Notes: a model not told the origin generated them from the sequence alone. DNA of 64,000 nucleotides from an uncultured Gemmatimonadaceae bacterium (GCA_963781585.1 CAWAGQ010000002.1:32001-96000); one strand, 5' to 3'. Positions 1 to 19,687 are shown, numbered from the stretch's first letter. Numbers and translations: made by a program.

Positions 1-636
1 CTGCCCGGGCTCTCGAAGTCGGCCCGCACCGCGGTGGACGGTGCGTTCGCCTTCGCCATGCTCTCCCGCGGCACGTACACCGTGCTGGTGCGCGACGTCG
101 GCTACCGGCCGGTGCTGGCGCGGGTGGCGGTCCCCATGCCGGCGGATTCGGTGCGCGAGTTCGTGCTGACGCCGATTGCCCCGGAGCTCCCGGGCGTGGC
201 GATCACGGCGACCGCGGTATCGTCCAAGATGCGGGGCTTCGAAGAGCGGCGCCTGACCAATGCCGGCGGCCGGTTCATCACGCGCGCGGAGCTGGCGAAG
301 CACGAGGAGTGGCCCCTGAGCGACCTGCTGCGTTCGGTGCCCGGCGTGCGCCTGGCGCGGCAGCCGGACAACACGGTTCTTCTGGAGAGCACGCGCTCCG
401 CGATCGCAGCATTGATCCCAGGCAAGGATACGCTCGCGCACTGCTACTACCAGGTATACCTCGATGGAACCGTGATCTTCCAGCCGGGCCGGGGGCTGCC
501 GCCGAATATCGACGACTTCGCGCCAAACGGGATCGAGGCGATCGAGATCTACGCGGGGCCGGCCAGCACGCCCATGCGCTTCGGCGGCATCGGTGCGGCA
601 TGTGGGACGATCGTGTTGTGGACGCGGGCGCCGTGA
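1..636 (+). CDS. Carboxypeptidase-regulatory-like + TonB-plug-like domain protein without beta-barrel (5' partial; paralog A1)
   Basis: Frame is open from base 1. Motifs GFEERR..GGRFIT, LSDLLRSVPGV, CYYQVYLDG, IEAIEIY and terminal CGTIVLWTR. Near-identical to 8012-8644. Confidence 0.75.
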   Translation: MPGLSKSARTAVDGAFAFAMLSRGTYTVLVRDVGYRPVLARVAVPMPADSVREFVLTPIAPELPGVAITATAVSSKMRGFEERRLTNAGGRFITRAELAKHEEWPLSDLLRSVPGVRLARQPDNTVLLESTRSAIAALIPGKDTLAHCYYQVYLDGTVIFQPGRGLPPNIDDFAPNGIEAIEIYAGPASTPMRFGGIGAACGTIVLWTRAP

Positions 637-638
637 GG
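1..638 (+). repeat. Direct repeat, paralogous to 8012-8646
   Basis: Nucleotide near-identity by eye; differences concentrated in 373-441 vs 8384-8449. Confidence 0.95.
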
Positions 639-1098
639 TCACGGATCTCGGCTCGCGCGGCAGCCATACTCCTGGCCCATTCTGCTGCGGCGCAAAGCGG
701 CAGTCTGGTCGGACGCATCTCGTCGGACTCCCTCGGTGGCGCGGCCATTGCGGCGGAAGTCACCCTGCCGGCGCTTCACGCCGTCGCACACACGGACTCC
801 CGCGGCCGCTACCGGCTCACCGGGCTCGTGCCGGGACGGTATCTGGTTGAGGCTCGGGCCGTCGGATTCAAGACTTCGGCCGACAGTGTGGACATTCCCC
901 GATCAGGTGAGGCGGTGCACGACCTCGTCCTGACCAGGCTCGTGCCCGTGCTCGCCCCGGTCGTGACGACGAGTCCGGGAGTCAGGTACCTATCGCCGGG
1001 GCTGCGGGGCTTCGAGGCTCGACGCCATGTCGGCTTCGGCCACTTCATTGTCGAGGACATCCTTCGGAAGTATGACAATGACCGGCTGTCCGATCTGC
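633..1098 (+). pseudogene. 3'-truncated plug-like protein (paralog B1 of 12297-13092)
   Basis: GTG start overlaps the previous stop (GTGA). Signal-like ARAAAILLAHSAAAQ. Matches B2 up to RLSDL, then jumps into the regulator gene. Confidence 0.8.
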
Positions 1099-1099
1099 A

Positions 1100-1686
1100 A
1101 CGGTGCGCCGGCTCCGGGCGCAGAACCTGCACCTTCCGGTGCTGGTGGGCGTGCGCAACGTCCTCGTGCGCGACGTTCCCGTGAAGGCCTACGCCCGCGG
1201 CGGCGTGGATGCCCTGTTCCTGCTGGATTACCCGTTCGAGCGCGAGGAGCTGGTGAAGGAGGTGCACGCGCGGCTGGCGGTTCCCGTGCCTGCGCGCGTG
1301 CTCGACGCGCTGGGTCCACTGCTTGCGCCCGGCGTCGGCAGGACAATCGGGTGTTGGTGCATGCGCAACGCGATGCGGACGTGCCCCGTACGCCGCGTCG
1401 TCGCCTTCTTCCGGATGGACGAGAAGCAGCTCGATGACTCCGTGGAGGCCCTCGGTCTTCCGGCGGTGGGGACGCTCCTCAGGCTCGGGTGTCATCATCG
1501 TGCGCGCGAGCTGGAATCGTGGGGTGGGGTGTCGAAGGGCTGATTGCAGAGCGGCTGGGTTTCCCCGACGCCAAGTCGCTGGCGACGATGCGGCGTCACC
1601 TGCGCGCGTTACCGCGCCTGGCCAAGGTCGCTGCGCCGATTCGGGAGCTTCTGACGATGGGGTTGGAGGCGGGGCGTGCGGATTAG
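1100..1686 (+). pseudogene. 5'-truncated, frameshifted AraC-like regulator (paralog of 14525-15301)
   Basis: RRLRAQNLHLPVLV...GCHHRARELE, then a frameshift near 1535 to IAERLGFPDAKSLATMRRHLR. Aligns to the C-terminal three-quarters of 14525-15301. Confidence 0.8.
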
Positions 1687-1693
1687 CGGCCGC

Positions 1694-1820
1694 CGCAGGG
1701 TGCGGTGTACCAGCCCGGCGGCTCCAGATGTGACGAGCAAGCGTGGCCCCTCTGGGTCCGTGATCTCCAGACGGTCGAATATTCTCCAGAAAGTTGCGCC
1801 ATTTGCCAGAAAGTGAGGTG
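1694..1820 (+). promoter_or_regulatory. Conserved intergenic element with tandem CCAGAAAGT repeats (putative operator/promoter, copy 1)
   Basis: CCAGAAAGT at 1786-1794 and 1806-1814 (20-bp period). The block is conserved at 15310-15430. Confidence 0.6.
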
Positions 1821-1926: not shown

Positions 1927-2202
1927 ATGCGGCCCACCCAGTTGAAGCTTCTCGGAATCGCAGTCATCGCGGCCGGCGGCGGAGTCTTGTTGGTCGAGCC
2001 CGCTGCAGCCCGCGCGATGCCGACCAGTTGTGACACTATTGGCGAGTGCGTGAGCGAGTGCCCGAGTGAAGAAGAGGTAATAGATTGGTGCGCCGACGAA
2101 GCGATTGCGCACGGTTGCATGCTGACGGGAGGCGGTTGCAACAACTGGGAGGGCAACTGCTCGATTGCATACAAGCACTGCCACATGAAGGAGGCCGAGT
2201 AG
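1927..2202 (+). CDS. Small secreted 8-Cys acidic peptide
   Basis: GGAGG RBS, Sec-type signal (MRPTQLKLLGIAVIAAGGGVLLVEPAAARA), 8 cysteines in a mature part of about 60 aa. Confidence 0.8.
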   Translation: MRPTQLKLLGIAVIAAGGGVLLVEPAAARAMPTSCDTIGECVSECPSEEEVIDWCADEAIAHGCMLTGGGCNNWEGNCSIAYKHCHMKEAE

Positions 2203-2475: not shown

Positions 2476-3162
2476 ATGCCAAAAGGCCCATCACGCTCTC
2501 AGCGAGGCCGGACAGACGTCGCGGGCGCCACGATTGCCGTCTGCGCGGTGCTGATGACACTCTTCGTCGGATATCGGGAACTCGCTCCCACGCCGCAGGA
2601 CATCAGATTGATACCACCGCCGGCCCAACTCGATAATTGGGCGGCGATTGCAACGAACGACCGTCCTCGGCTGGGGCCAGAGCACGCTGCTGTCACCGTG
2701 GTCGAGTTTGGTGATTTCGAGTGCCCGGCTTGTCGAGCGTATGCGGCCACCTTGGACTCCGTCCGTCGCCGCTATCCCGCTGATGTGAAAGTACTGTTTG
2801 CACACTTTCCAATATCCTATCATCGGTTTGCTATCCCCGCCGCAAGGGCCGCCGAGTGCGCGAATGTACAGGGGCGTTTCGAGCAATTCTACTACGCTGT
2901 CTTCGCAAACCAGGACTCGCTCGGCTTGATGCCGTGGTCCAGCTTTGGGGAAGCGGTGGGAATCCCGGATCTCCCAGGTTTCATGAGCTGCGTCGCGGCG
3001 CGCGCGCCGATAGATCGAGTAGGTCGCGATACACTACTTGCGAAAGAGCTTGGCGTACGTGGAACGCCAACAATCCTGGTCAACGGTTGGAAGTGGAGCC
3101 AACCACCCTCGTTCGCGACGCTCGACAGCGTGGTGCAGCATGAGCACAATCGGGCCCCCTAG
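2476..3162 (+). CDS. DsbA-family thiol-disulfide oxidoreductase, membrane anchored
   Basis: VVEFGDFECPAC active site, HFP motif, GVRGTPT cis-Pro loop, N-terminal TM helix. Confidence 0.9.
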   Translation: MPKGPSRSQRGRTDVAGATIAVCAVLMTLFVGYRELAPTPQDIRLIPPPAQLDNWAAIATNDRPRLGPEHAAVTVVEFGDFECPACRAYAATLDSVRRRYPADVKVLFAHFPISYHRFAIPAARAAECANVQGRFEQFYYAVFANQDSLGLMPWSSFGEAVGIPDLPGFMSCVAARAPIDRVGRDTLLAKELGVRGTPTILVNGWKWSQPPSFATLDSVVQHEHNRAP

Positions 3163-3163
3163 C

Positions 3164-4459
3164 ATGCGGATTCGGGCATACGGCATCCACGGACTGCGGA
3201 CTATCGTCGCATGCAGCACCCCTGCGGCGTTGTGGCCGCAGGCGCTGGCGGTAATCAATCCTGCGCCTGACTTCAGTTCGCCGAGTTTTCACGTAGGGCG
3301 CGAATTGACGCGGCTGGACACGGACCTGTTGCATGAGATGTATGGCGTGCGACAGGTGACTTTTTCGGAGCGAGGAAGGCTCTTGGTGGCGATTCCAGAT
3401 GTGATGGAGGTGCGCGAATTCGATATGCAAGGTCGGCTTCTTCGCCGGATCGGGCGGCTTGGCTCGGGGCCCGGCGAAAACCGCTCCATTTCGAGTCTCA
3501 TGCGGTTGGCAGGTGACTCGGTCCTCGTCTACGATCAACTCCAGCGCCGGATCAACATTTTCGGACCCGCGCGTCGTTTCGCACGGAGCGTGACCGTCCG
3601 ATACGCAGTCGATCGATGCTGCAGCCCGACGGGCATATATCTCGGCCAAGTCCCGACGACTCCCCAACCACGGACCACATCAGGCCTCGCGATGACAGCT
3701 GACTATCGCATCGCGTCTTGGCGTGGACCGCCCGTGGTCGGGAGCGACCGCAAGTCGCTCGTCACATCAGACACGGCGCGCATTCGCCTGTTCGCGAGGG
3801 CCCCGAGAATTGTGCTGGACCGCAGTCGCGGCGTTGACGGCGAGTTCAGCTTCGGGCCCGTTTATCAGATCCCGTTCGTGGTTCCTCCAATGATCGCGTT
3901 CACGGAGCACTGCATTGTCAATGCGAGTGGTGCAGAGTACGAGATCCACATTTACTCATCCAACGGCCGTCTGCTGCGGGTCGCGACTGCTCCCGTGGCG
4001 CCCGAGCCCGTTACGCGAACAGATATACGCCGCATGCGAGACTCGCTTTCGGCGACGGTGCCGGACGAGGCCCAGTCGCGCCGGCTGTTGGCAGCCCTGG
4101 ACACGATCCGCCTGCCGTCATCCCATCCAGTCATTGACGCGCTGCTCGCCGACGGTACGTCAATCTGGGTCCGCAGCTGGAGCGCCAAGCCATCCGGGGC
4201 TGAGCGGTGGGCGCGCTTTGACGAAGAGGGCCACCTGCAAGGTAGTCTGGTTACTCCTCCCAATCGTCACGCCGTTGCTTTTTTTCAGGGGCGCATTGCA
4301 CTTTTGGAAGAAGATCCCGCCACAGGTTTGCAGCACTTGAGCGTTTCCTCAATCACACAAAACGCGGTCGGGGGGCAGGAAGGTAGGCCGGTACCGAGCA
4401 TGGTCTCGCGCCGCGACCGGCGGGTCGATGGCCCGACCGTAACTGATCCATGCTCATGA
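3164..4459 (+). CDS. 6-bladed beta-propeller (NHL/TolB-like) exported protein
   Basis: GRLLRRIGRLGSGPGE motif, GDSVLVYD, C-terminal IWVR...FDEEGHLQG. Confidence 0.75.
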   Translation: MRIRAYGIHGLRTIVACSTPAALWPQALAVINPAPDFSSPSFHVGRELTRLDTDLLHEMYGVRQVTFSERGRLLVAIPDVMEVREFDMQGRLLRRIGRLGSGPGENRSISSLMRLAGDSVLVYDQLQRRINIFGPARRFARSVTVRYAVDRCCSPTGIYLGQVPTTPQPRTTSGLAMTADYRIASWRGPPVVGSDRKSLVTSDTARIRLFARAPRIVLDRSRGVDGEFSFGPVYQIPFVVPPMIAFTEHCIVNASGAEYEIHIYSSNGRLLRVATAPVAPEPVTRTDIRRMRDSLSATVPDEAQSRRLLAALDTIRLPSSHPVIDALLADGTSIWVRSWSAKPSGAERWARFDEEGHLQGSLVTPPNRHAVAFFQGRIALLEEDPATGLQHLSVSSITQNAVGGQEGRPVPSMVSRRDRRVDGPTVTDPCS

Positions 4460-5019
4460 CATGTCGCTACCGGGCGGTGGCCTGCGCCCTCTGGTTCAGC
4501 ATAACGACGAGTTGTGCTACGAACCGGCGCACTACGTTTCCGCGTTCGCCGAATCCCATGCGACTGGTGGCGAGCTCGCTGGAAACGCCCGACGGTCAGG
4601 CGTTTACTGTACGAGGCAGGTTTGAAGGAACCGTGCTGGTGCGAGGGGGCTGGATCGATATCATCGTTCCCGCTGCTACCATTGCGTTTCGGCAGTCGGT
4701 GGTGGACATACGGTATCGTTCCCTCCGAGTGCGGGCCGCGCTAGCATCCGGTTCACAACCTCGGCCATGGCGCATTATCTCCGAGAGCAGGGCAATTCCG
4801 CTTCGCCCGCTCCTGGCGAGGGCGCTCACCAGCGCCGACTCCGCGCAGCGCGTGCTCGTCGATACCCTGCGTTTCGAAGTGCCGCTGCCGCGTGAGCTGC
4901 CGGCCGATCGGGTTTGGATTGCATTCGAATTCGAGTTTGTAGACACGAGCGCTAGCGGTTTCTGCCAGCTGGCTTGGACCTACGCGCATGCGGAACCGCC
5001 GCTGCAGGTATCCCGATGA
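4450..5019 (+). CDS. Hypothetical exported protein (possible lipoprotein)
   Basis: Overlaps the previous stop; hydrophobic N-terminus ending ITTSC (weak lipobox); beta-rich sequence. Confidence 0.55.
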   Translation: MLMTCRYRAVACALWFSITTSCATNRRTTFPRSPNPMRLVASSLETPDGQAFTVRGRFEGTVLVRGGWIDIIVPAATIAFRQSVVDIRYRSLRVRAALASGSQPRPWRIISESRAIPLRPLLARALTSADSAQRVLVDTLRFEVPLPRELPADRVWIAFEFEFVDTSASGFCQLAWTYAHAEPPLQVSR

Positions 5020-5312
5020 CCCGAGTGAGCACGGACCGGATGGTGGCCGCAGCAGCGCCCGCCCCCTCCGGTACGTGCTGCGCGTGAGGCAGGATGGCCG
5101 CTGGGTCGAACTTCGACGGAGAAGATCGGCCGCCCGAGTCTGGCCGCGTCAGCCCAGCAGCCGGGCGAAACCGGGAACTGTTCGTCCACCCATCACTGCG
5201 GACGAATGTCGTATCAGTACCTGGTACTGAAATGGCGTCTTCTCAATGCACCGGTTGTCGCGCGCAGGCTCTGGCCAAAGAACGTGGGACGCGCGAGCAG
5301 CGTGCGTCGTGA
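5016..5312 (+). CDS. Small hypothetical ORF, reading frame ambiguous (probably frameshifted)
   Basis: ATGA overlap with the upstream stop and GTGA overlap with the downstream start. Coding-like segments lie in different frames. Confidence 0.3.
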
Positions 5313-6886
5313 GCGCCTATGCGCTGGTGGTGGGCTTTGGTGGAACGAGCGAGTACCGACAGCAACTCAGAGCCCGTTTTGCATCCCACGGCTTGCACTC
5401 CCTTTTCCTCGATAGGTGGGACGAGTGGCACATTTCGCTGTTTCCAAATAGCGCATCGTATCAGCTGCGGTCGGTGGGCGGTCTGCCTACTGTGCGGGCG
5501 CCTGATGTGAGGGTCGTCTTGTTATTCGGTTACCCGTCACCGCCCGAGGTTGACGCAGCGGACACGTACTACCAAGCCGTCGAGTACGAGGCGCTGCTGT
5601 TCGGCCTCTGTGCGCTTGCTACTCCGGTGACTGCATCGAGATGGCAGTTTCTTGCGATGGGGTATTCAGATAGTCGCCAGCGAGTCGGCATGGGCCATGA
5701 TGTCCTCCAGCTCTGGCCGTCAGTAACAGGCCTCTTCGAACTTGGTGCACGTGAGGCTCTGCTATTCGGCGACGGCTGCATCTACCTGACCGCGGAGCGA
5801 CAGGTCGTTTGCCCGTCCATCTGGCCTTGGTCACCTCAGATACCGTTCCCCGTCACGCTTGAGCTCGATGTGGCTCGCAGCGAGTTCGTTCCGCTGGTGG
5901 GCATGCTCCCTGACTGGACTCCACCGAGCAGCACCATCTTGCAGGCTATCATCGCGGCATCGTTGGGCGGTCAACACAGCTGGCGCAGCATCGTCGAGAC
6001 GCCCATTCCCCGCATGATGCCTGCGGGAGTGGGACGTATCGGCATTGTGGCGCATCGCACTGATCAGACGGCAATACATCTGCTGCACCGGTGCAGAATT
6101 CAGGGAAAGCGGTCGACCCTCCTGGACCTGACCTTCCTTTACTCGCGCTCTTGTCCTACCGCCGTATTCGAAGAAAGCCTGGAGCAGCTGCACCATGAAC
6201 CGCTCGTGTTCGCGCGACCGCTGCTTGTAATCCGGGCCGGGGATCCGAACAACACGCTTGCCCCCGAACGCCACATGCGAGTGCTTCGCACTCTACAGCA
6301 GAGGTTCCTCCCCACCATGAATCCTCCCGCCGCAGGTCATACCAATTTCTCGAAATCCGCTCACGCCGCATGCCTGGTCGAGCAGGGCTTGGACGTACCT
6401 GCGACGCTTGCTACCAACGATGCTGCCGCAGCTCGGGATTTCCTCGCTGAATACCGGCATGTGATATACAAGTCGGGCAGCTGGATGAGGAGTCTCGCCG
6501 CCGTACTTCGGCGAGATGATGTCGATCGCCTCGAATCCCTGCATAACTGCCCCTGCCTTTTCCAGGAGCGGATCGTGGGGCCCAGCTGTCGGGTTCACAC
6601 TGTGTTCGACGAGCAGATGTCTCTGCTGATCAATATTCCAGGCGTGGATTATCGCCCACGCGTTAGCGCGCACCACTGTCGGCCGATAGAGCTGCCAGCG
6701 CCGCTTTCACGTTCGCTCTCAGCGGCAGCTATGGCTGCCGGGCTCGCCTTATCCGGCTGCGACGTTATCTGGAGCCCGGATTCCAAGAAGTGGCTCACAC
6801 TTGAAATCAATCGCATGCCGGCGTTTGCCTTCTACGATCACTTGTCGTCGATGTCGGTTGCGGATGCTGTGCTGGATCACGTATGA
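5309..6886 (+). CDS. RimK/MvdD-like ATP-grasp ligase with a degenerate N-terminal second ATP-grasp-like module
   Basis: C-terminal half has NFSK...GLDVPATLATND, VIYKS, CPCLFQERI, RVH, DYR, LEINRMPAF. The N-terminal half has EYEALLFGL, resembling a pre-ATP-grasp helix. Start could be 5246 or 5309. Confidence 0.8.
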   Translation: MSAYALVVGFGGTSEYRQQLRARFASHGLHSLFLDRWDEWHISLFPNSASYQLRSVGGLPTVRAPDVRVVLLFGYPSPPEVDAADTYYQAVEYEALLFGLCALATPVTASRWQFLAMGYSDSRQRVGMGHDVLQLWPSVTGLFELGAREALLFGDGCIYLTAERQVVCPSIWPWSPQIPFPVTLELDVARSEFVPLVGMLPDWTPPSSTILQAIIAASLGGQHSWRSIVETPIPRMMPAGVGRIGIVAHRTDQTAIHLLHRCRIQGKRSTLLDLTFLYSRSCPTAVFEESLEQLHHEPLVFARPLLVIRAGDPNNTLAPERHMRVLRTLQQRFLPTMNPPAAGHTNFSKSAHAACLVEQGLDVPATLATNDAAAARDFLAEYRHVIYKSGSWMRSLAAVLRRDDVDRLESLHNCPCLFQERIVGPSCRVHTVFDEQMSLLINIPGVDYRPRVSAHHCRPIELPAPLSRSLSAAAMAAGLALSGCDVIWSPDSKKWLTLEINRMPAFAFYDHLSSMSVADAVLDHV

Positions 6887-7420
6887 GCGAAACAACTCTC
6901 CAGGTTTCGGCGCGGCGTGTGCTTCGCCGTCCGAGGCCGGAGCGTGGGCGGGGGTGAGTGGGGTACCATCGCGAGGATTCGCCCTGATGACACAGTGGAT
7001 CGATCTACTGGACGGGTGCCAGGCGCGCGGATCGGCACTAGCCTCGCTCCCGGGTACGGGACCGAGGTGATAGCGTGGTCTGCTGGCCATGGGTACTTGG
7101 GGGCGAGTGAAGGAGGATCCTTCCGTTGAATCCGATGCCCGCGTTCGTATCATCCGTGGCCAGAAACGTCGCTGGCCCTACGGTGGCTACTCCAATCGGT
7201 TACCTTACTGCAGTTTCTGGCAGCGCGCCGGAACGAGCATCGGTCCCATGGCGGCCCCTGCCACTTGCCGTCCTTCGCGGACCGTCAGGCGCGTTTCGTC
7301 GTGGAATTGGTCGAATACGGCAAGCCAGTGGTGAGTATCTTTTGTGGTTTGGTTCGCGTGCGCCGGTGGGTGCTCACGCCGACACCTTGATCGTCCTCAG
7401 CTTGTCTGACGGGGTTGTCA
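6883..7420 (+). pseudogene. Frameshifted hypothetical gene following the ATP-grasp gene
   Basis: ATGA overlap at 6883; coding-like pieces in successive frames. Confidence 0.25.
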
Positions 7421-12152: not shown

Positions 12153-12161
12153 CAGCACCTG

Positions 12162-12296: not shown

Positions 12297-13092
12297 ATGC
12301 GTGCCAAATGTATGATTTCGGCGAGCGCTGCCGTGACAGCAATGCTTCTGGCCCATGCGGCAGGCGCGCAGAGTCGGCAGCCTGGTTGGGCGCGTCACGT
12401 CGGACTCGCTCGGTGGCGGCGGCATTTCGGCCGAAATCACCGCGCCGGCGCTTCACGCCGTCGCGCACACGGACTCGCGGGGGACCTACCGCCTCACTGG
12501 ACTCGAGCCGGGACGGTATCTGGTCGAGGCACGGGCCGTCGGATTCAAGACCGCGGCGGACAGTGTGGACATTCCTCGGTCACGTGAGGCGGGGCACGAC
12601 TTCGTCCTCACCAGGCTCGTCCCCGTGCTCCCCCCGGTCGTGACGACGAGTCCGGAAGTCAGGTACCTGTCGCCGGGGCTGCGGGGCTTCGAGGCGCGAC
12701 GCCATCACGGCTTCGGACACTTCATTGCCGAGGACATGCTTCGGAAGCATGACGATGACAGTCTGTCTGATCTGCTGAGCACGCGAATCCCGGGGGTCTT
12801 GATAGCCCGTGCAGGTCAGAACGCCGCGTATGTCTCGTCGAGCCGGAAGTCGGAGGGCGGCATCCGGGCCTTCGGCAGCGGTAGCCGGCCAATTCCCTGC
12901 TATACCACGATCTACCTGGACGGTGCGCTCTTCTACGACGCGACGCTTTCCGTGCAGCCACCGCCCGACATCAACCAGTTCACTGTCCATCAGTTGGGCG
13001 GGGTCGAGTTCTACGCAGGTTCGGCCACCACGGCCGAAGGGTTCAGGGTTTCGCCGTGCGGGACGCTCTTGCTGTGGACGCGCGAGCGGTAG
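12297..13092 (+). CDS. Carboxypeptidase-regulatory-like + TonB-plug-like protein without barrel (paralog B2); one frameshift near 12372
   Basis: Signal peptide in the 12297 frame, remainder in the 12355 frame. GFEARR..GFGHFI, CYTTIYLDG, GVEFY, terminal CGTLLLWTRER. Confidence 0.8.
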
Positions 13093-13329: not shown

Positions 13330-14190
13330 ATGGCGATGCACGAGCGGACTGTCCGTTGGCTGGTCGCATGCTTCGGCGGCCTAACGATTCTCCCGATGGC
13401 GGCTGCCGCGCAAACCGGCGGCACGCGCGTCCTCTCGGGAGTCGCGGCCGACACGTCCGGCAACCGCGTGCCATACGTCACGGTCTGGTTCGCCGGGACG
13501 CGCCGAACGGTCAGTGACGATTCGGGACGGTTCCGTGTGGAGCTGCCGCGGGAGGCCGGAGTCACCGTGCAGCTGCGCCGGCTGGGTTTCGCCCCGACCG
13601 ATGTTCGCCTCGAGTTCGGCGGCGACACCGCGATGACGATCACGCTGGTACCGGTGGCGGCGAAACTGGCGGCGCTGCGCGTGCAGGCGGAACAGCAGGT
13701 GCTCAGTCTCGAGCTGCACGGGTTCTACGAGCGAATGGCCGAGCAGGAGAAGTGGGGCGGGTCGGGACAGTTCGTCACGCCGGAGGAGATCGAATTCCGC
13801 AAATCGCCGCGAACCACGCAGTTGCTGGACGGCCGGCACGGAGTGGCGCTCAAGGGTGTGGGAAGCTGCAACGTCCAGGTGCAGTGCTTCGTCCCGTTAG
13901 GCACGAACAACTGCATCATGCAGATATACCTCAATGGACAACGCCTGATGCCGACCGGAGGCGCGCGCGCCACCGCCACGGGCGGTATGGTGGCGACGGC
14001 GTTCAGGGCCCTGTCGGGCCAGGCGGCCGTAGCGGGTGGACTGGGTCCGGGCAACGTGGTCTTTCTCGATGATTTCGTGCATCCCTCGGAGCTCGCCGGT
14101 ATCGAGATCTATCAACGGGCGGTTCAGGCACCGCCGCAATACCAGATGCTGAATGGCAATTGCGGTGTGATTCTGGTGTGGACCAAATGA
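13330..14190 (+). CDS. Carboxypeptidase-regulatory-like + TonB-plug-like protein without barrel (paralog C)
   Basis: GGAGG RBS, signal peptide, GFYER..GQFVTPEEI, CIMQIYLNG, AGIEIY, terminal CGVILVWTK. Confidence 0.8.
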   Translation: MAMHERTVRWLVACFGGLTILPMAAAAQTGGTRVLSGVAADTSGNRVPYVTVWFAGTRRTVSDDSGRFRVELPREAGVTVQLRRLGFAPTDVRLEFGGDTAMTITLVPVAAKLAALRVQAEQQVLSLELHGFYERMAEQEKWGGSGQFVTPEEIEFRKSPRTTQLLDGRHGVALKGVGSCNVQVQCFVPLGTNNCIMQIYLNGQRLMPTGGARATATGGMVATAFRALSGQAAVAGGLGPGNVVFLDDFVHPSELAGIEIYQRAVQAPPQYQMLNGNCGVILVWTK

Positions 14191-14524: not shown

Positions 14525-15301
14525 GTGCACCGGGTGCCTGAGATCCTCGTGGACCTGGAAGCGCGCCCGCTGTGGAACGAGATCGTGGAGGGATTGGGCG
14601 CGATCACGGCGCGATTCATCGACGTGGCCGCAGCAGTACGCAAGGTCGATTCCGGCGAGGTTCGTGCTGCCGCTCTCGTCCTGTTGGGCGACCGCACCGC
14701 GGACGGTGCGCCGAGCGAGCTGACGGCGCGCCGGCTGCGGACGCTGAACGTACACGTGCCCGTGTTGGTCGCCGTGGTCAACGTTCGGATGCGCGACGTT
14801 CCGGTGAAGGCCTACGCCCGCGCCGGCGTCGATGCCCTCTTCCTGATGGACCTTCCGTTCGAACGTCAGGAACTCGGGAAGGACCTGCGCGCGCGACTCA
14901 TGCTTCCCGTCCCTGCACGCCTGCTCGATGCCTTCGGACGACTCCTCAGGCCGGGCGTCGGCAGGACCATCGGGTGCTGGTGCATGCGCAATGCTACGCG
15001 GACGTGTCCCGTGCGTCGCGTGGTCGACTACTTCCGAATCGATGAGAAGCGGCTGGATAAGGAGGTGGAGGCCCTCGGCCTTCCCCCGGTGGGGACGCCT
15101 CTCAGGCTCGGGTGTCACCATCGTGCGCTCGAGCTGGAAGCGAGCGGCGCGCTCTCAATGGAAGGGATTGCGGAGCAACTGGGTTTTCCCGACGCCAAGC
15201 CGCTGGCAGCGATGCGGCGGCACCTGCGAGGGTCACCACGTCTGGCGGCAGTCGCGTCGCCCATTCGGGAGCTTCTGATGATGGGGTTGGAGGAAGTGTA
15301 G
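14525..15301 (+). CDS. AraC-like transcriptional regulator with a receiver-like N-terminal domain
   Basis: C-terminal SMEGIAEQLGFPDAKPLAAMRRHLRG resembles the second AraC HTH. PVLVAV...AYARAGVDALF resembles a receiver fold. Confidence 0.6.
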   Translation: MHRVPEILVDLEARPLWNEIVEGLGAITARFIDVAAAVRKVDSGEVRAAALVLLGDRTADGAPSELTARRLRTLNVHVPVLVAVVNVRMRDVPVKAYARAGVDALFLMDLPFERQELGKDLRARLMLPVPARLLDAFGRLLRPGVGRTIGCWCMRNATRTCPVRRVVDYFRIDEKRLDKEVEALGLPPVGTPLRLGCHHRALELEASGALSMEGIAEQLGFPDAKPLAAMRRHLRGSPRLAAVASPIRELLMMGLEEV

Positions 15302-15309: not shown

Positions 15310-15430
15310 GCAGGGTGCGGTGTAGCATTTCCGGGATGTGACGACAACGTGGCGCCACGGGACCGGTGACCTCCACGCGCTCCAATATTCTCCAGAAAGT
15401 TGGGGCATTCGCCAGAAAGTGACGTGGTGT
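15310..15430 (+). promoter_or_regulatory. Conserved intergenic element with tandem CCAGAAAGT repeats (copy 2)
   Basis: CCAGAAAGT at 15392-15400 and 15412-15420; homologous to 1694-1820. Confidence 0.6.
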
Positions 15431-15548: not shown

Positions 15549-16691
15549 ATGAGTCCAGTTCTACGGCGTCACGGTCCGCCGCGCGACCGTCCGATCCGTT
15601 TCGTTCACGCCCTCGTTCTCGGCGGCTTGCTGTGCGCCAGCCGTCCCCTGCGGGGCCAGGACGTGCGGCTGCCGGAGCGTGGCACCTGCTCTCGATGCCG
15701 AGTCGTGCTGGAGCGGATGGGCACGCTCGGTACGGACACGCTGGACGGGTACCTCACGAACTATCCCATCTGGGCGGCCATGGATGGCGAGGGGCGCGTG
15801 TACGTCACGCTGCAGCCGCCTGGTGATCTTGTGCTCGCCTTCGATTCGCTGGGGAAATTTCTTGGACGTGTTGGCAAGAAAGGTCAGGGTCCGGGCGAGT
15901 TCGCCTTCCCGGTCCTGGTGCTTCCGCGGGCCGACAACTCACTACTCATCTACGATTTCAACGGCTCGAAGCTCTCCACGCTCACGCGCGATTGGAAGTT
16001 CGTCAGCATGGTGCGCCAGACCGCAGCCCCGCTGGGCGTTCTGGCGGACGGTCGGAGGCTGGTCAACAACCCCGCGATTGATCGAGATCTCGTCGGATAT
16101 CCACTGCATCTCGTCGACAGCACGGGCAAGACCGTGGCGTCGTTCGGCGCCGACTCAGGTCGCTTCGAACAAGCAGATCGCTGGAAGCTGACGCGGACGG
16201 TGTCGGTGGGACTGCGTGGCACAATCTGGTCGGCCTATTTCGATCGGTATCGGATCGATGAGTGGTCCCCGGACCTTGACCGCCTGCGCGTCTTTCGGCG
16301 GGCTGTCAGCTGGATGCCAATTGTTGCAGCGCTCTCCGACGGCGGCCTCGGCGAAAGACCGTCGGCACGGGTCGTCGCCCTTCGAGAGGATGAGTTGCAC
16401 AGGCTCTGGATTTTCTCCCGAGTCCCGAGCGAAGAGTGGCGAGCTGCGCTCGGCCCCCCGGTTGCAGCCGGCCGTCGAACAACCTACCCGCAGCTGGACG
16501 AAGGACGACTCTTCGATACGATGATCGACGTGATCGACTTGCGGACCAATCACCTGCTCGTAACACAGCGCGTGCGGGAACACATCAGGTTCTCCCTCGA
16601 CACGCGACACGTCGCGTCGTATCGCGAGGATGAAAAGGGCACTCCACTGCTCGTGCTGTGGAGAGTGTCGCTGGTCGGCGTTCAACGATAG
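15549..16691 (+). CDS. 6-bladed beta-propeller exported protein with N-terminal CxxC
   Basis: Signal peptide, TCSRC, VGKKGQGPGEF, GYPLHLVD, DTMIDVIDL. Confidence 0.8.
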   Translation: MSPVLRRHGPPRDRPIRFVHALVLGGLLCASRPLRGQDVRLPERGTCSRCRVVLERMGTLGTDTLDGYLTNYPIWAAMDGEGRVYVTLQPPGDLVLAFDSLGKFLGRVGKKGQGPGEFAFPVLVLPRADNSLLIYDFNGSKLSTLTRDWKFVSMVRQTAAPLGVLADGRRLVNNPAIDRDLVGYPLHLVDSTGKTVASFGADSGRFEQADRWKLTRTVSVGLRGTIWSAYFDRYRIDEWSPDLDRLRVFRRAVSWMPIVAALSDGGLGERPSARVVALREDELHRLWIFSRVPSEEWRAALGPPVAAGRRTTYPQLDEGRLFDTMIDVIDLRTNHLLVTQRVREHIRFSLDTRHVASYREDEKGTPLLVLWRVSLVGVQR

Positions 16692-16700: not shown

Positions 16701-17222
16701 ATGCAGATGCAGATGCATGTTCTCCGCGGAATGATGCTGTGCGGCGTGCTATTCGTGTCAGCCGCCGGCGCGTGATGGCCGCCATCCTCAAATCCTGCTC
16801 GGTGGTCATCAGGGCCCGCGGCCGGTGACCTTTCCGTCATCGCAGTGTCTCGACCCGCGCTCACAGGTTGCTTCGGCTGCTTCCCGGGTGGCTATGGGGA
16901 TCCCGTGATCTGCTCGTCCGGCCAGCATTTCGATCAGACAGGCACCTCCGAATTCTGGCGGGACAACATGGACGCCGGCTGCGTGTGGACGGAGTGTCGT
17001 GATGTTCACAACAGCTGCAACGTCACGCTCGCTCCCGTGATCGATGCCGTGAAGAGTGCGATTGCCGAGAATGACTTCGCGGAAGTCCGGGCGCTGATGA
17101 AGGACGATCCGCACATCGAGTACAATGCGAGACGCTCCGCCATTCAGGTGATCGGATGCGACTCAACTGTGCTCCTGCATGTCCCGCTGAGCAGAGCGAA
17201 ACGAACGAGCCTTCTCCATTGA
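16701..17222 (+). CDS. Secreted Cys-rich protein interrupted by one in-frame TGA (16773-16775)
   Basis: GGGAGG RBS and signal peptide MQMQMHVLRGMMLCGVLFVSAAGA. The same frame continues to CFGC..C..C..C..C and YNARRSAIQVIGCDSTVLLHVPL. Confidence 0.65.
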
Positions 17223-17382
17223 CGCGTTGGCCTGCAGCAACCGTCGTAATAAGGTTGCCGACAGATCGCAGCTTCCAGGCCGGTTCAGCAGCGTAACGGC
17301 ACGAGGCGGAGGAGCGTGCCGGTCCACCAGTACGCTCTTCCGTCCCGGCCTGCAGGGCACATGCAGCGGTGACAGTCAACCG

Positions 17383-17781
17383 TCAGGGTCCCGTCCGCAG
17401 ATCGAGGCCAACAACCTTGTTTGCCTGGGCTGATCCATCGTGCTCGACTTCCCGCCTTGCCGCCACCGCGAATGCCAGAAAGTACCGCCGCAACCCGTCC
17501 GCTGAATCCGGCGGTACTTCCGGATCGAAGAACAGCCGGCAGAACTCCTCGCGCGCCCGCAACACCTCACGACGCCGCGGACCCCTCCACCGCTCGTCAC
17601 CCGCGGTGAAGTCGAACAACTCGAGCGCCCTGGCCAGCGCGTGATCGAATCGACTCCGGTTCCCGGACTCCCACGCGCGGATCGACCGCTCCACCTCGCT
17701 CCCCACGTGGGCCATCTGCTCCACGATCGAAAGCGTGCGCCACCGCGCCGCTCGCTCCGCCTGACGAGTCGTCTCCGTCAT
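17383..17781 (-). CDS. Hypothetical helical protein, partner of DUF5674
   Basis: WRTLSIVEQMAHVGSEVER...RRREVLRAREEF; ATGA-coupled to the upstream gene. Confidence 0.75.
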   Translation of the reverse strand: MTETTRQAERAARWRTLSIVEQMAHVGSEVERSIRAWESGNRSRFDHALARALELFDFTAGDERWRGPRRREVLRAREEFCRLFFDPEVPPDSADGLRRYFLAFAVAARREVEHDGSAQANKVVGLDLRTGP

Positions 17782-18137
17782 GCGTCGCTCACGAGACGTG
17801 ACACGGTATTCCGGACACGCTCGCGCAGCGCGGCATCTTGCACACTCCGGCTCCGATTCCGATCCGCCGGCCGCACGTTGATCATCGAGTCGAACTCGAT
17901 CCACCCCTCGCCGTGCTCATCCGGGTACAGATTGATTCCCCACAGGGATGCCTGTCGCGACCCGTCATCCAGCAGCGCCGCTTCCTCATCCGAATGCAGC
18001 TCCCCTCCGGCCGCCATGACGTCCCGGTCGATATCCACGACGGCCTTCACCATGTCCCCGAACTGACGCTCCGCCATGGTACGGAGCTCCGCACGGGTGA
18101 GCGGACTGCGGACGAGGATGATGTCGGGACGTTCCAT
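17778..18137 (-). CDS. DUF5674 family protein
   Basis: FGDMVKAVVDI...GGELHSDEEAALL..GSRQASLWGINLYP..IEFDSMINVRP. Confidence 0.8.
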   Translation of the reverse strand: MERPDIILVRSPLTRAELRTMAERQFGDMVKAVVDIDRDVMAAGGELHSDEEAALLDDGSRQASLWGINLYPDEHGEGWIEFDSMINVRPADRNRSRSVQDAALRERVRNTVSRLVSDA

Positions 18138-18562
18138 GAGGCAGGGCTACTGTCGGGGTGCCACGGACCGGGGCGCGCAAACTTGCCTCCGTCCCTGGTG
18201 CCGCTCAAGTGCACAGGCCAGCACATCGAGCCCGGAGAGCCGCGACGTCATCAGGTCAGGCAAGCACGTCAGCAGCGCGGTGACCCGCTCTCGAGCACCG
18301 CCGCCCACGTCGCGAGCGGTCGACGGCTCGAGTCCCACGTTGAGTCCCAGGAACGGGCTGGCCAGGAGGCCCACGTACGACGGTGCTGAGGCGCATGGGG
18401 ATTGCCGCGAGTGTGTCCAGAGGGGTACCCTCGCCATTCGTCGTGCAATCCAACGGATGATTCTGAAGCGGTGCGCGCGGCGCGATTCGGGCACCCTTCA
18501 TGTGACGGCGCCGACGGTCACCCCCGTCGTTTCGGCCATCCATCACTATTACCTCGGAGCGC

Positions 18563-19687
18563 ATGATGTCCGCTGCAGCCCGCCACACCCTGCGAATAAC
18601 GCCGATGGTCCTGGCTGCACTGGCGCTCACGGTAACCGCGGTGCCGGCGCAGGAGATGATCATCGCTGATCGTGTCACATGCGCTCGCTGCTCCATTGAG
18701 CTGAACCTTCGGTTGACTCTCAACACGACCGGTACCGGAGGAACCACGGGCGTTCCGCTGCAAGTGGTTCCGTTGAGTGATGGCCGACGTGTGGTCCGGC
18801 TCGCCGGGCAGCTTCCGACTGTCCTGTCCAGCAATGGCCGCGACCTTCGTGAAATCGGTCGCCGCGGCGCGGGCCCCGGGGAATTTCAGGAAGTGGCAGA
18901 TGTAGCGCGACTGCCTGGCGATTCGCTGCTGCTGCTGGATTCCGACCTGAGTCGTGCATCGGTGCTGGGGCCTGACGGCATGTTCGTGCGGTCGGTGACA
19001 CTGCCGTTCTACACCTCCGGCGTCGCTGTTCTGGACTGGCCCCGCAATGTCGTCGTGAATGGAATGAGCCATACCCCTGATGCGGTTGGCTGGCCTCTTC
19101 ACTTGATGGACTTCTCCACTTCGCCGGCTCGCCTCCGGTCATCCTTCGGAGACAACCAGGCGGAACTCCGCGCCGGGCAGGACTTCACTCTAATCCGACG
19201 CTTTTTCGCCGTATCCGGTACGTCCTTCTGGACTCACCAAATCACGAGTTATCAACTCAGCCGATACTCCGCAGACGGACGAATCCAAGGGACGATTCGT
19301 CGTCAACCAGAATGGTTCGCCCGCGAGTCGCCGTGGACCGTAGGCGGTCCGACCATGGCTCCTCCGCCATTCCTTCAGGCGGCGGCTGTACGGAATGACA
19401 CACTCTGGGTTGCCGCCGCTATCCCGCGGCCCGACTGGCAGAGGGTATGGCACTCCGACCGAATCGCAGGGAAACGAGAGCTGACGCGCGCCGAAAGGCC
19501 TGATCTGGTCGAACTCTACAAGACCCGACTCGAAGTGATCGAGTTGCGCAGGGGCGCCCTGGTCGCCCAGCGGGATGTGGACGGACTCGTCGTCACGATT
19601 GATAACCGACTGGGCGCAACGCTGTACACGCTGAACCGCGAGCTGGAGCCCAAGGTCCAGGTGTTCGATCTTCAACTCAAGCGATGA
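18563..19687 (+). CDS. 6-bladed beta-propeller exported protein, paralog of 15549-16691
   Basis: Signal peptide ending VPAQ, TCARC, IGRRGAGPGEF, GWPLHLMD, TRLEVIEL. Confidence 0.8.
   Translation: MMSAAARHTLRITPMVLAALALTVTAVPAQEMIIADRVTCARCSIELNLRLTLNTTGTGGTTGVPLQVVPLSDGRRVVRLAGQLPTVLSSNGRDLREIGRRGAGPGEFQEVADVARLPGDSLLLLDSDLSRASVLGPDGMFVRSVTLPFYTSGVAVLDWPRNVVVNGMSHTPDAVGWPLHLMDFSTSPARLRSSFGDNQAELRAGQDFTLIRRFFAVSGTSFWTHQITSYQLSRYSADGRIQGTIRRQPEWFARESPWTVGGPTMAPPPFLQAAAVRNDTLWVAAAIPRPDWQRVWHSDRIAGKRELTRAERPDLVELYKTRLEVIELRRGALVAQRDVDGLVVTIDNRLGATLYTLNRELEPKVQVFDLQLKR

Follow-up and report, generated by a model that had tools for sequence, protein, structure and literature searches.

The first 20 kb of a 64-kb window (the whole stretch of DNA analysed, 64,000 nucleotides, from an uncultured Gemmatimonadaceae bacterium) raise the question of whether plug-protein genes, a regulator gene and a conserved element (together, the chassis) form a portable unit with exchangeable downstream genes (the cargo), or whether a simpler history explains why they occur twice. 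With moderate confidence, we read the locus as a tandem duplication, one copy of which is partly deleted, in which a putative common regulator-binding site precedes divergent secreted-protein operons.

Extent and divergence of the duplication

The duplication is real, and its anatomy was seen directly when the window was compared with itself by blastn, as the first-pass annotation had proposed for the first 20 kb. Three collinear blocks, 78-89% identical, relate 1-1821 of copy 1 to 8012-15427 of copy 2 (1-638 vs 8012-8646, 89.2%; 661-1098 vs 12337-12775, 86.3%; 1100-1821 vs 14723-15427, 77.8%; Table 1). The annotated order of plug A, plug B, regulator and element was therefore recovered twice, although copy 1 is a deleted remnant and not a full copy. 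Homology ends at 1821/15427, 7 nt 3' of the second CCAGAAAGT box, which agrees with the earlier claim that it stops just past the element and that different cargo follows.

Two segments of copy 2 are missing in copy 1. The first (8647-12336, 3.7 kb) carries the toxin-antitoxin island, made up of two nucleotidyltransferase-like ORFs, an Rv0078B-like antitoxin, HepT/MntA (NCBIfam, 1.6e-17 and 6.6e-15) and MazF (7e-12) with a MazE-like partner. The second (12776-14722, 1.95 kb) comprises the C-terminal half of plug B, the whole of plug C and ~60 N-terminal regulator residues. The chassis as first annotated was thus incomplete, since copy 2 also holds this third plug gene and four toxin-antitoxin-like pairs. 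A gene remnant also sits inside the copy-2 chassis, besides the island.

Table 1 Features of the duplicated locus, with positions counted from the first nucleotide of the window.
Feature	Position	Strand	Description
Plug A, copy 1	1..636	+	5' end cut by window edge; C-terminal CarboxypepD_reg part, then Plug-like domain
Plug B, copy 1, truncated	600..1184	+	Signal-peptide-like N-terminus and CarboxypepD_reg domain kept
Regulator remnant, copy 1	1100..1678	+	N-terminal ~60 residues deleted
Paired boxes CCAGAAAGT-N11-CCAGAAAGT, copy 1	1786..1814	+	Putative regulator-binding site
8-Cys 91-aa protein (cargo 1)	1927..2202	+	Hydrophobic N-terminal signal-like segment; GGAGG just before ATG
DsbA-like thioredoxin-fold protein (cargo 1), membrane-anchored	2476..3162	+	CPAC motif; ORF open from 2410
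prop1, NHL-like propeller paralogue (cargo 1)	3164..4459	+	Similarity to prop3 and prop2
189-aa protein (cargo 1)	4450..5019	+	Hydrophobic N-terminus; family-less
ATP-grasp protein, 546 aa (cargo 1)	5246..6886	+	NCBIfam and PDB matches
Plug A, copy 2	7126..8644	+	Frame plot, three-frame translation, Pfam
Toxin-antitoxin island	8667..12266	-	Missing in copy 1; Pfam, NCBIfam
Plug B, copy 2	12297..13092	+	Signal peptide 12297-12374; body in other frame from 12376; Pfam
Plug C, third paralogue	13330..14190	+	Signal peptide; missing in copy 1
Regulator, copy 2, full length	14525..15301	+	Predicted aspartate-less receiver-like domain and AraC-type double helix-turn-helix
Paired boxes CCAGAAAGT-N11-CCAGAAAGT, copy 2	15392..15420	+	5' of prop2
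prop2, NHL-type six-bladed propeller (cargo 2)	15549..16691	+	Signal-like N-terminus, CSRC motif; ORF open from 15429
Cys-rich protein (cargo 2)	16701..17222	+	GGGAGG and ATG, 24-aa signal peptide, in-frame TGA, 148-aa body
prop3, third propeller paralogue	18563..19687	+	Signal peptide, CARC motif

At the level of single genes, plug A of copy 1 (Pfam CarboxypepD_reg 8.1e-08, Plug 4.2e-06; GC3 0.90) is 88% identical to copy 2 in amino acids. In the copy-2 gene the coding signal starts at ~7330 in frame 1, with the first CarboxypepD_reg half-domain, and moves near 7850 to frame 2, which contains CarboxypepD_reg and Plug. Truncated plug B spans residues 8-140 of 245 at 84% (tblastn) and ends at about residue 140; its homology to copy 2 stops at 1098, where the frame enters out-of-frame regulator sequence, and it is 91% identical to the orthologue P0127. 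Plug B of copy 2 has one extra base at ~12375, whereas the orthologues P0127 and P0128 have uninterrupted signal peptides. The regulator remnant begins around residue 61-67. Matched against the copy-2 regulator by tblastn, it covers residues ~61-211 in frame 2 and 215-256 in frame 1, with a frame change near 1538 and family HMM matches at +_1082_1540 and +_1438_1683. At least six frameshifts in three unrelated genes of the window indicate an error-prone assembly, so single-base frameshifts prove nothing here, and those of copy-2 plug A, copy-2 plug B and the copy-1 regulator can be taken neither as decay nor as mere error.

Between the copies, dN/dS was 0.24-0.36 (0.24-0.28 in the regulator segments), which shows that both were under constraint during most of their divergence. 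Values of dS were 0.23-0.28 in the plug segments and 0.44-0.56 in the regulator segments, and this two-fold difference suggests a mosaic history of the duplicate.

Plug proteins form a barrel-less family

In the plug proteins a transthyretin-like domain is joined to a TonB-box-like motif and a plug-like domain, and there is no barrel (model pLDDT 90). Their family (98 matches, nearly all 245-310 aa) has signal peptides and an LDSVVVTA-like motif, a putative TonB box when compared by eye with consensus sequences. A homologue 38% identical to the plug protein carries a Gemmatimonadota source name, which makes this phylum probable for the high-GC genome. Its profile matched a TonB-linked receptor (6.2e-15) as well as SusC N-termini; plug C belongs to it (family HMM 3.7e-48; Pfam CarboxypepD_reg 1.8e-08). 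Oar/SusC-type TonB-dependent transporters consist of an N-terminal extension (PF13620), TonB box, plug and 22-strand barrel, and the plug proteins share the order signal peptide, CarboxypepD_reg, TonB-box-like motif (LDSVVVTA) and Plug-like domain. However, they lack the barrel, stop after ~150 plug residues in a conserved CGTLLLWTRER-like tail, and constitute a family of their own and not gene fragments. Passages of PMC6434023 describe the Oar architecture as an N-terminal extension on a TonB-dependent transporter and report that Oar's N-terminal portion binds TonB.

A predicted receiver-AraC regulator and paired boxes

According to its predicted structure, the regulator is a receiver without the phospho-acceptor Asp fused to an AraC-type DNA-binding domain (pLDDT 94.7, pTM 0.91; TM 0.7 and rmsd 3.2-3.7 Å against receiver domains). 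Its annotation as AraC-like held for the family and the predicted fold, but not for the window's own protein (copy 2), which had no Pfam match even at E<=10. The family comprised 122 clusters at E<=1e-3. Pfam HTH_18 was matched in 15/40 members (E<=0.01; best 3.2e-9) and Response_reg in 1/40, and the family profile matched the AdpA DNA-binding domain (5.2e-8) and an AraC regulator (1.5e-5). Past strand 3, G (31/40) and R (31/40) flank a variable position, which is D in only 4/40 members, and Lys is missing after strand 5. The receiver-like fold followed by two helix-turn-helix motifs resembles AraC/XylS-family regulators with an N-terminal receiver, from which the window's protein differs in falling below every Pfam threshold. 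Aspartate-less receivers and pseudo-receivers, which likewise lack the phospho-acceptor Asp, are described in PMC4395418 and PMC12632262, whose searched passages do not mention AraC output. Separately, C150 is conserved in 32/40 family members; as a lead only, this residue points to redox control of the RitR kind.

The conserved element is a pair of direct CCAGAAAGT boxes. This 9-mer occurs five times in the 64 kb against 0.13 expected, a count reached in 0/100 shuffles, and four of the five occurrences form two pairs with 20-bp spacing (1786/1806 and 15392/15412). Allowing <=2 mismatches and a spacing of 19-22 nt, pairs were found in only these two places in the window (30 shuffles: mean 0.3, maximum 3). 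The copy-1 pair lies 113 nt upstream of the ATG of the 8-Cys protein and the copy-2 pair 91 nt past the regulator stop codon; a weaker third box at 1767 in copy 1 is not kept in copy 2. The element named in the first-pass annotation is indeed conserved at both copies. The fifth occurrence (17475) is coding sequence, specifying YFLAF in a minus-strand ORF, and was rejected as an operator.

Conservation of the boxes was observed directly: a 45-nt non-coding core around them (AATATT...GTGG) is identical at 41/45 positions between the copies. Other non-coding blocks 5' of the boxes are equally conserved (one is 16/16 identical), so the boxes are not uniquely conserved, and with two copies only, their conservation could be a mere consequence of how old the duplication is. 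A search beside both pairs revealed no sigma-70-like promoter. The search for element and regulator together in other genomes was negative, with a regulator relative in 0/40 loci, from scattered taxa, returned by the operator scan. The two direct boxes are reminiscent of araI1-araI2, the half-sites of AraC, which are likewise direct repeats spaced by about two helical turns.

Cargo genes differ in content and share classes

The cargo is compositionally lighter than the chassis, as had been noted by eye, with GC3 of 0.64-0.75 vs 0.76-0.91 (18 other window genes: median 0.82, range 0.73-0.87). All five genes listed earlier for cargo 1 were found. The best Pfam match of the 8-Cys protein, Fer4_10, scored 16.8 bits, below the 25.5-bit cut-off; it had zero NCBIfam matches, and its best Atlas score was 0.79. 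The DsbA-like protein (Pfam Thioredoxin_4 9.3e-19, DSBA 4.3e-11) has a hydrophobic segment, and the 189-aa protein had no family in Pfam or NCBIfam. prop1, whose N-terminal IVAC resembles a lipobox by eye, is 46% identical to prop3 over 59 aa (1.5e-10) and locally similar to prop2.

The C-terminal ~280 aa of the ATP-grasp protein are similar to ATP-grasp ligases of ribosomal peptide maturation, and no family was found for its N-terminal ~260 aa. It matched NCBIfam TIGR04187 at 7.4e-19 (68 bits vs a cut-off of 350) and four PDB structures at E<=0.01, namely 7drm (1e-13), 9bou (2.2e-8), 5ig9 and 5ig8; 9bou is MvdD-like according to its depositors, and the other three are presumably peptide-maturing ligases. 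Among 5.8 billion proteins, only the protein itself and one weak match were recovered, and a close relative was absent also from the two contigs with apparent orthologues of the regulator and plug B; cargo 1 is thus not conserved together with the chassis.

The description of cargo 2 held for the CxxC propeller (CSRC), the Cys-rich exported protein and the nearby prop3 (CARC), except that in the Cys-rich gene an in-frame TGA (16773-16775) separates the signal peptide from the 148-aa body, which has 7 Cys. prop2 scores above the DUF5128 cut-off of Pfam (26.0 vs 22.9 bits) and matched NHL domains in the PDB (2.4e-14); prop3 is 28-29% identical to it over 345 aa (E 1.6e-24). prop3 is a separate unit, behind two minus-strand genes. 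As first annotated, each cargo contains a Cys-rich exported protein together with a propeller. The first-pass annotation likened this to Bacteroidota loci that pair small peptides with six-bladed propellers (DUF5128/BF3164-like). The present locus resembles them in prop2 and in the small Cys-rich ORF beside a propeller in both cargos, but prop1 (E 0.02) and prop3 fall below the DUF5128 cut-off and, among solved structures, NHL domains are the nearest relatives. Titles and the opening parts of abstracts yielded no description of Bacteroidetes loci with a peptide and a 6-bladed beta-propeller, and no literature on NVEALA was found.

Alternative explanations

Misassembly, named in the first-pass annotation as a possible refutation, is a highly improbable source of the duplication: error-prone as the assembly is, 11-22% of positions and two large indels distinguish the copies, and their dN/dS indicates divergence under selection and not a duplicated or collapsed repeat. 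A decaying tandem duplication without regulatory meaning, where the homology edge is just a breakpoint of the duplicated segment or of a later gene-conversion tract, the boxes owe their conservation to lying within that tract and the downstream genes are unrelated neighbours, would account for the internal deletion of copy 1, the equally conserved non-coding blocks, the unequal dS, the missing promoter-like site and the failure to find a third instance among window box pairs or in the 40-locus scan. We nevertheless consider it rather unlikely. Two exact 9-mers two helical turns apart are the same in both copies amid 78-81% identity, they lie between the gene of a DNA-binding regulator and the next operon, as is typical of an operator, and both cargos share classes (an exported Cys-rich protein and NHL propeller paralogues), which is unexpected of unrelated neighbours.

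The first-pass annotation favoured a modular, portable chassis of plug, regulator and operator that takes up one set of secreted peptide/propeller effectors after another, with signalling, antagonism or kin recognition as the possible roles. The sharp homology break after the boxes, the low cargo GC3 relative to the median elsewhere, the orphan ATP-grasp gene and the Cys-rich/propeller pairing of both cargos are in keeping with this. We judge it improbable, however, given that more than two instances are needed and just two exist, one a remnant; that scanning the ORFs turned up neither an integrase nor a transposase nor a recombination site, and a tRNA is likewise missing; that the 3.7-kb island and the gene remnant interrupt the copy-2 chassis; and that no operator-scan locus had a regulator relative. 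A similarly low probability attaches to cargo 1 being an independent modified-peptide cluster, only incidentally linked to the chassis, where the ATP-grasp enzyme cross-links a precursor and the DsbA-like protein adds disulfides. Graspetide/microviridin clusters combine an ATP-grasp maturase with a leader-bearing precursor, and in cargo 1 all four solved matches are ATP-grasp proteins, the C-terminal half best matches NCBIfam ribosomal peptide maturase models, and a small Cys-rich, acid-rich ORF and the DsbA-like gene run in the same direction. Yet the family score is far below cut-offs, the ~260-aa N-terminal region is additional, and zero homologous clusters were available for comparison. 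The sole small candidate has 8 Cys and begins with a Sec-type hydrophobic segment, whereas by eye no export signal is seen in the ligase, which would place enzyme and substrate in different compartments. Moreover, 227 nt lie between the ligase and the other cargo-1 genes, and no adjoining precursor-like ORF stands out.

Proposed model

Under the tandem-duplication reading, the full unit (7.1-17.2 kb) would secrete three barrel-less proteins resembling Oar/SusC N-termini and retain a cytoplasmic regulator, with the boxes 91 nt downstream. A regulator dimer may bind the pair of direct CCAGAAAGT boxes, which are spaced by two helical turns, and turn on the promoter of the next genes in response to a signal that would not be phosphorylation. 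The unit upstream of it (1-7 kb) is a remnant: an internal deletion brought half of plug B up against the regulator, which now begins at ~residue 61. The downstream difference may stem from replacement of the downstream DNA, or from gene conversion that re-homogenised the chassis alone; such conversion after an older duplication of the whole unit would fit the unequal dS of plug and regulator segments. Because the boxes are preserved without a single change, trans control of cargo 1 by the second unit's intact regulator is probable.

The two copies of the locus

Two paralogous units stand in tandem at this locus, and the upstream one has lost part of its sequence. Comparison of positions 1-2600 with the whole window by blastn returned three collinear matches between the upstream remnant (copy 1, 1-1821) and the full unit (copy 2, 8012-15427). 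The same blocks were recovered by a repeat search, and neither search found further matches to 1-2600 elsewhere in the window. Both units consist of a chassis, that is, genes for small secreted plug-like proteins, a regulator with receiver-like and AraC-type parts, and paired 9-nt boxes downstream of it, followed by a set of genes termed cargo here. Homology between the copies was lost 7 nt past the second box. Together with the box statistics described below, the blastn blocks and this loss of homology mean that the central observation of the first-pass annotation stands: blastn, motif counts and pairwise alignment agree that the order plug genes, regulator, conserved element is duplicated and that similarity ends just past the element. 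Coordinates of the main features are collected in the table.

Features of the duplicated locus and its surroundings (window positions)
Feature	Position	Strand	Remarks
Copy-1 block, first	1-638		Matches 8012-8646, 89.2% (blastn, 1-2600 vs whole window)
Copy-1 block, second	661-1098		Matches 12337-12775, 86.3% (blastn, 1-2600 vs whole window)
Copy-1 block, third	1100-1821		Matches 14723-15427, 77.8% (blastn, 1-2600 vs whole window)
Box pair, copy 1	1786/1806
Cargo 1 gene	1927-2202		91-aa protein, hydrophobic N-terminus, 8 Cys
Propeller paralogue prop1	3164-4459
Plug family members in the window	7856-8644, 12297-13092, 13330-14190		Barrel-less, tandem paralogues
Toxin-antitoxin island	8667-12266	-	3.7 kb, four toxin-antitoxin-like pairs, between plug A and plug B; copy 1 without it
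Regulator, copy 2	14525-15301
Box pair, copy 2	15392/15412
Propeller paralogue prop2	15549-16691
Cargo-2 Cys-rich ORF	16701-17222		Strong ribosome-binding site, 24-residue signal peptide, TGA at 16773-16775, 148 codons with 7 Cys
ORF at the middle repeat copy	17383-17904	minus
Propeller paralogue prop3	18563-19687		CARC motif; 28-29% identical to prop2
56-nt direct repeat	14277-14332, 17459-17514, 19842-19897		Outer copies vs middle copy 51/56 and 37/56; best of five shuffles 31

Two large stretches of copy 2 are missing from copy 1. One, 8647-12336, sits between plug A and plug B. The other, 12776-14722, holds the C-terminal half of plug B, all of plug C and the start of the regulator, and through its loss the copy-1 plug B frame enters regulator-derived sequence at ~1098. 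By tblastn, copy 1 retained only residues 8-140 of 245 of plug B and only the part of the regulator from about residue 61 (61-211 in frame 2, 215-256 in frame 1). Orthologues elsewhere are all full length, both for the regulator (P0002, 286 aa; P0003, 261 aa) and for plug B (P0127, 260 aa; P0128, 281 aa), so that the long form is taken as ancestral and copy 1 as a deletion derivative. Judged from equal contig sizes (502,083 nt for P0002 and P0128, 40,010 nt for P0003 and P0127), the regulator and plug B orthologues appear to share contigs.

The toxin-antitoxin island of copy 2 gave matches to HepT (1.6e-17), MntA (6.6e-15) and MazF (7e-12), its other ORFs being a MazE-like partner, two nucleotidyltransferase-like ORFs and an Rv0078B-like antitoxin. 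PADLOC found no defence system among the chassis and cargo proteins scanned, its weak matches being confined to two toxin-antitoxin ORFs, HepT and MntA. An additional toxin-antitoxin pair, PIN/MazE-like, was located at 28617-29777.

The copies diverge at 11-22% of positions, with dN/dS values of 0.24-0.36 in all four comparable segments, so the duplication is old, evolved under selection for a long time and is no artefact of assembly. The regulator segments showed about double the synonymous divergence of the plug segments (dS 0.44-0.56 vs 0.23-0.28). Copy-1 plug B was nearest to P0127 (91%; copy-2 plug B, 82%) and the copy-1 regulator was about equidistant (72-83%) from all three intact regulators. 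The history is thus a mosaic one, shaped by recombination or gene conversion.

Several reading frames are also interrupted by single-base changes. These included a frame change near 7850 in copy-2 plug A, one extra base at ~12375 between the signal peptide and body of copy-2 plug B, and the frame change in the copy-1 regulator. Unrelated genes of the window are equally broken, with one split in a CusB-like gene, three in a CusA-like gene and two in an amidohydrolase gene (38101-43064 and 54857-56589), so single-base frame changes are indistinguishable from assembly errors and were not counted as decay. A reading of the copy-1 frameshifts as pseudogenisation was dropped, since these three unrelated genes together carry at least six. 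The two large gaps of copy 1 stand apart from these changes as evidence. The splits in unrelated genes point either to an assembly prone to indels or to pseudogenes being widespread. Downstream of the locus, 29800-43064 carries copper/metal resistance genes, namely those for a P-type ATPase with an HMA domain, a CsoR-like repressor, a CopC/CopD fusion and an outer-membrane efflux protein, besides the CusB-like and CusA-like genes.

Paired boxes downstream of the regulator

The motif CCAGAAAGT occurred five times in 64 kb against an expectation of 0.13, a count reached in 0/100 shuffles. Four of the five occurrences form the two pairs, each spaced 20 nt start to start. Allowing up to two mismatches per box and a spacing of 19-22 nt, paired boxes were found at these two places only in the window; the same search on 30 shuffles averaged 0.3 pairs and gave 3 at most. 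A 45-nt core (AATATT...GTGG) had 41 identical positions in the pairwise alignment of the copies; a weak third box at 1767 in copy 1 is not kept in copy 2. The boxes lie 91 nt past the regulator stop codon and, upstream of the first start codon that follows, 113 nt away in copy 1 and 72-129 nt in copy 2, where the distance varies with the start chosen.

Two further interpretations of these sequences were rejected. The conserved non-coding stretch is not a structured RNA, as it folds no better than shuffles (z = -0.7 and 0.08). Rfam at gathering thresholds gave no match in the whole window. The fifth CCAGAAAGT, at 17475, was considered as a third operator; it is coding sequence, the reverse complement of YFLAF codons near the end of the minus-strand ORF, and falls inside the 56-nt repeat.

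A probable aspartate-less receiver with an AraC-type output

The window regulator had no match in NCBIfam or, down to E<=10, in Pfam, and a word-based search found three near relatives only. Exhaustive searching enlarged the family to 122 clusters at E<=1e-3, mostly 250-290 aa. Among 40 aligned members, HTH_18 was detected in 15 (best 3.2e-9) and HTH_AraC and Response_reg in one each; the family is mostly invisible to standard models. AraC/XylS proteins are recognised by a C-terminal domain of ~100 aa with two helix-turn-helix motifs (PF12833/PF00165), and the family profile matched the AdpA DNA-binding domain (5.2e-8), the AraC regulator 5chh (1.5e-5), and also VirS and XylR. The N-terminal half of the profile matched receiver-like and half-barrel folds weakly. 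In the structural model (pLDDT 94.7, pTM 0.91), seven helices lie past residue 128, and residues 1-125 resembled receiver domains with a TM of about 0.7 and an rmsd of 3.2-3.7 A.

Response regulators of two-component systems have a phospho-acceptor Asp where strand 3 ends and, following strand 5, a Lys. Across the 40 members, strand 3 is followed by G in 31/40, then by a variable residue that is D in 4/40, then by R in 31/40, whilst the column after strand 5 held D in 19/40 and K in none, so the Asp/Lys pair of a two-component receiver is missing from the family. Together with the receiver-like fold and the AraC-type profile matches of the family, this makes the regulator a probable fusion of an aspartate-less (pseudo-)receiver with an AraC-type output. 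Passages of PMC4395418 and PMC12632262 present this class in general terms, and a passage of the latter mentions redox-switched aspartate-less regulators, including RitR. C150 belongs to a W-C-L-R-N motif where the DNA-binding half begins; 32/40 members (alignment A2) share this Cys, which may recall RitR-type redox-switched regulators, a likeness we treat only as a lead. A tblastn search of plasmids found no regulator relatives.

Plug proteins without a barrel

By Pfam, each of the three plug proteins of copy 2 has a CarboxypepD_reg domain, and in plug A of both copies a Plug domain comes next (1.2e-12 and 8.5e-08, respectively, for the two domains of copy-2 plug A). Plug B and plug C were tied to the same architecture through the family alignment and the model. 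A search with plug B returned 98 proteins, most by far measuring 245-310 aa; the source annotation of one names a carboxypeptidase-like regulatory domain protein from a Gemmatimonadaceae bacterium. A signal peptide ending A-x-A-Q opens nearly every one of the 56 aligned family members (alignment A4). Two Cys are nearly invariant, and the C-terminal tail is conserved as a CGTLLLWTRER-like sequence in which CG..LW is invariant. The columns between the domains (L 55/56, D 34, S 31, V 50, V 29, ..., A 38) form an LDSVVVTA-like motif that, by eye, resembles a TonB box.

Structural comparison agreed with this domain order. In Foldseek searches with the AlphaFold model (pLDDT 90.0), the first domain resembled transthyretin-like domains and the whole model weakly resembled the plug-bearing models of FepA and CirA. 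The family profile matched the N-terminus of the TonB-linked receptor 9gbc (6.2e-15), as well as the SusC N-termini 5t3r and 8aa4. The succession of a PF13620 extension, a TonB box (by eye) and a Plug domain (PF07715) is that seen N-terminally in the Oar/SusC subclass. The 22-strand barrel (PF00593) that follows the plug in this subclass is missing: the proteins, at 245-320 aa, end after the Plug-like domain, and no window ORF scanned matched TonB_dep_Rec. Their consistent size, signal peptide, shared motifs and folds mark them as a family of exported proteins in its own right and not as gene fragments. In layout, the plug proteins correspond to the N-terminal third of a transporter of the Oar/SusC type and have no barrel.

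Oar itself, as described in passages of PMC6434023, has the same N-terminal extension and a plug with a TonB box; its N-terminal part binds TonB, and the transporter is required for protease secretion. Our literature search found no account of short plug proteins in Gemmatimonadetes and no described role for a barrel-less transporter plug in tandem paralogues.

Genes downstream of the boxes

Both units end in the same two-box element before differing, compositionally atypical operons for predicted exported Cys-rich proteins and NHL-like propellers. The suggestion in the first-pass annotation that cargo is more A/T-rich than chassis was borne out by GC3, which was 0.64-0.75 for cargo, 0.76-0.91 for chassis and had a median of 0.82 in 18 other window genes. 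Total GC ranged from 0.60 to 0.76 per 500 nt across 1-24 kb.

Besides the 8-Cys peptide, cargo 1 includes a propeller paralogue, a 189-aa protein whose N-terminus is hydrophobic, and a DsbA-like protein. The latter scored well above cut-off for Thioredoxin_4 (9.3e-19; 68.6 bits vs 23.2) and DSBA (43.4 vs 25.6). With a CPAC motif and a hydrophobic N-terminal segment, this membrane-anchored protein combines the thioredoxin fold, CxxC active site and export or anchoring that mark DsbA-like thiol:disulfide oxidoreductases. A 546-aa ATP-grasp protein is separated from the other cargo-1 genes by a 227-nt gap. The best NCBIfam matches of its C-terminal half were peptide-maturing ligases (TIGR04187, 7.4e-19), with scores far below the curated cut-offs of the graspetide-type models TIGR04187, MvdC and MvdD (68.1 bits vs 350, 41.3 vs 425 and 37.6 vs 475). 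Among solved structures it matched four ATP-grasp entries, 7drm (1e-13), 9bou, 5ig9 and 5ig8; 9bou was deposited as MvdD-like, and the other three we take to be graspetide and microviridin ligases. A search of 5.8 billion proteins returned a single weak relative (30% identity over 37% of the length), and with its ATP-grasp protein lacking an orthologue, cargo 1 is not part of a conserved unit. In graspetide clusters the ligase has a precursor gene next to it, and cross-links the precursor's core, which follows a leader and is rich in Thr/Ser/Lys and Asp/Glu. The sole small ORF available as precursor candidate, that of the 8-Cys peptide, carries an export signal, and we found no literature on graspetides with signal peptides. 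Best protein atlas scores for the 8-Cys peptide (0.79) and the N-terminal part of the ATP-grasp protein (0.88) were both below the useful range.

In cargo 2, prop2 carries a CSRC motif and matched DUF5128 (26.0 bits vs a cut-off of 22.9) and the NHL domains of TRIM2/3/71 (2.4e-14); prop1 and prop3 fell under the DUF5128 cut-off (E 0.02 and 0.07), yet are paralogous to prop2. In the Cys-rich ORF, the in-frame TGA occupies the first mature-residue position (lipobox-like AGA|x). Candidate explanations are a nonsense change, an error in the assembly and selenocysteine. The last of these is not supported, since Rfam at E<=1 returned nothing around the TGA, including no SECIS family, and the hairpin that includes it was not significant (z = -1.6).

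The middle copy of the 56-nt repeat encodes the C-terminal ...GLRRYFLAFAVAA of the minus-strand ORF; the outer two copies resemble remnants. The first two copies bracket exactly the regulator, boxes and cargo 2 (3.1 kb), which would be the arrangement expected of an insertion with a duplicated target. No recombinase was seen in connection with the repeat, and the ORFs scanned in 1-64 kb included no integrase or transposase families and the window no tRNA. The pairing of a site-specific recombinase with recombination sites at the cargo boundary, the hallmark of integron-like or island-type exchange, was not found.

Readings of the locus

We give about an even chance to the boxes being the site of the aspartate-less receiver/AraC regulator, with the intact regulator serving both promoters. 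A dimer of the copy-2 regulator would then sit on the putative box pair and control both downstream operons. Directly repeated boxes at a distance of two helical turns would be well matched to a protein with two HTH motifs that binds as a head-to-tail dimer. Its main rival, which we consider unlikely, is that the element marks a plain duplication breakpoint or conversion tract of no regulatory meaning. Other blocks of the same non-coding stretch are conserved as well as the boxes, and scans for sigma-70 promoters and terminators found none near either box pair; the over-representation and regular pairing of the motif are on the side of a regulatory site.

The modular system with swapped cargo proposed in the first-pass annotation is more doubtful, as it has two instances only. 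A scan of genome contigs for exact CCAGAAAGT-N11-CCAGAAAGT returned 40 loci in unrelated taxa from scattered phyla, and tblastn with 125 regulator-family proteins found a regulator relative at none of them (0/40, E<=1e-4), so these two-box matches are attributable to chance. The contig collection scanned thus includes neither the window's own contig nor a relative that carries the exact site. Four of the 40 matches (L005, L010, L013 and L020) lie on four contigs of one Verrucomicrobia MAG, suggesting that in this MAG the pattern belongs to a repeated element; these contigs are unrelated to the window because none holds a regulator relative. Improbable, in our view, is a joint reading of the whole locus. 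Under it, a portable, clade-specific regulator/CCAGAAAGT cassette would stand before fast-turning-over, horizontally acquired disulfide-rich/propeller operons, an orphan graspetide-like ligase would act on the secreted Cys-rich peptide, and the barrel-less plugs would aid outer-membrane crossing, by analogy with Oar-dependent secretion.

Significance

The evidence is that of a partly deleted tandem duplication and does not demonstrate a system of a new kind. Its parts, a probable AraC-type regulator bearing a pseudo-receiver and N-terminal transporter segments that lack the barrel, are novel variants of kinds already known. Two uncharacterised families are nevertheless brought into view, the regulator family (122 clusters) and the barrel-less proteins with an extension, TonB-box-like motif and plug (98 matches), the latter posing the question of what role a transporter plug has without its barrel. 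If the boxes are the regulator's site, one phosphorylation-independent regulator would act at two promoters in front of two differing sets of exported Cys-rich proteins, and the locus would offer a compact regulon open to testing in a phylum that has received little study.
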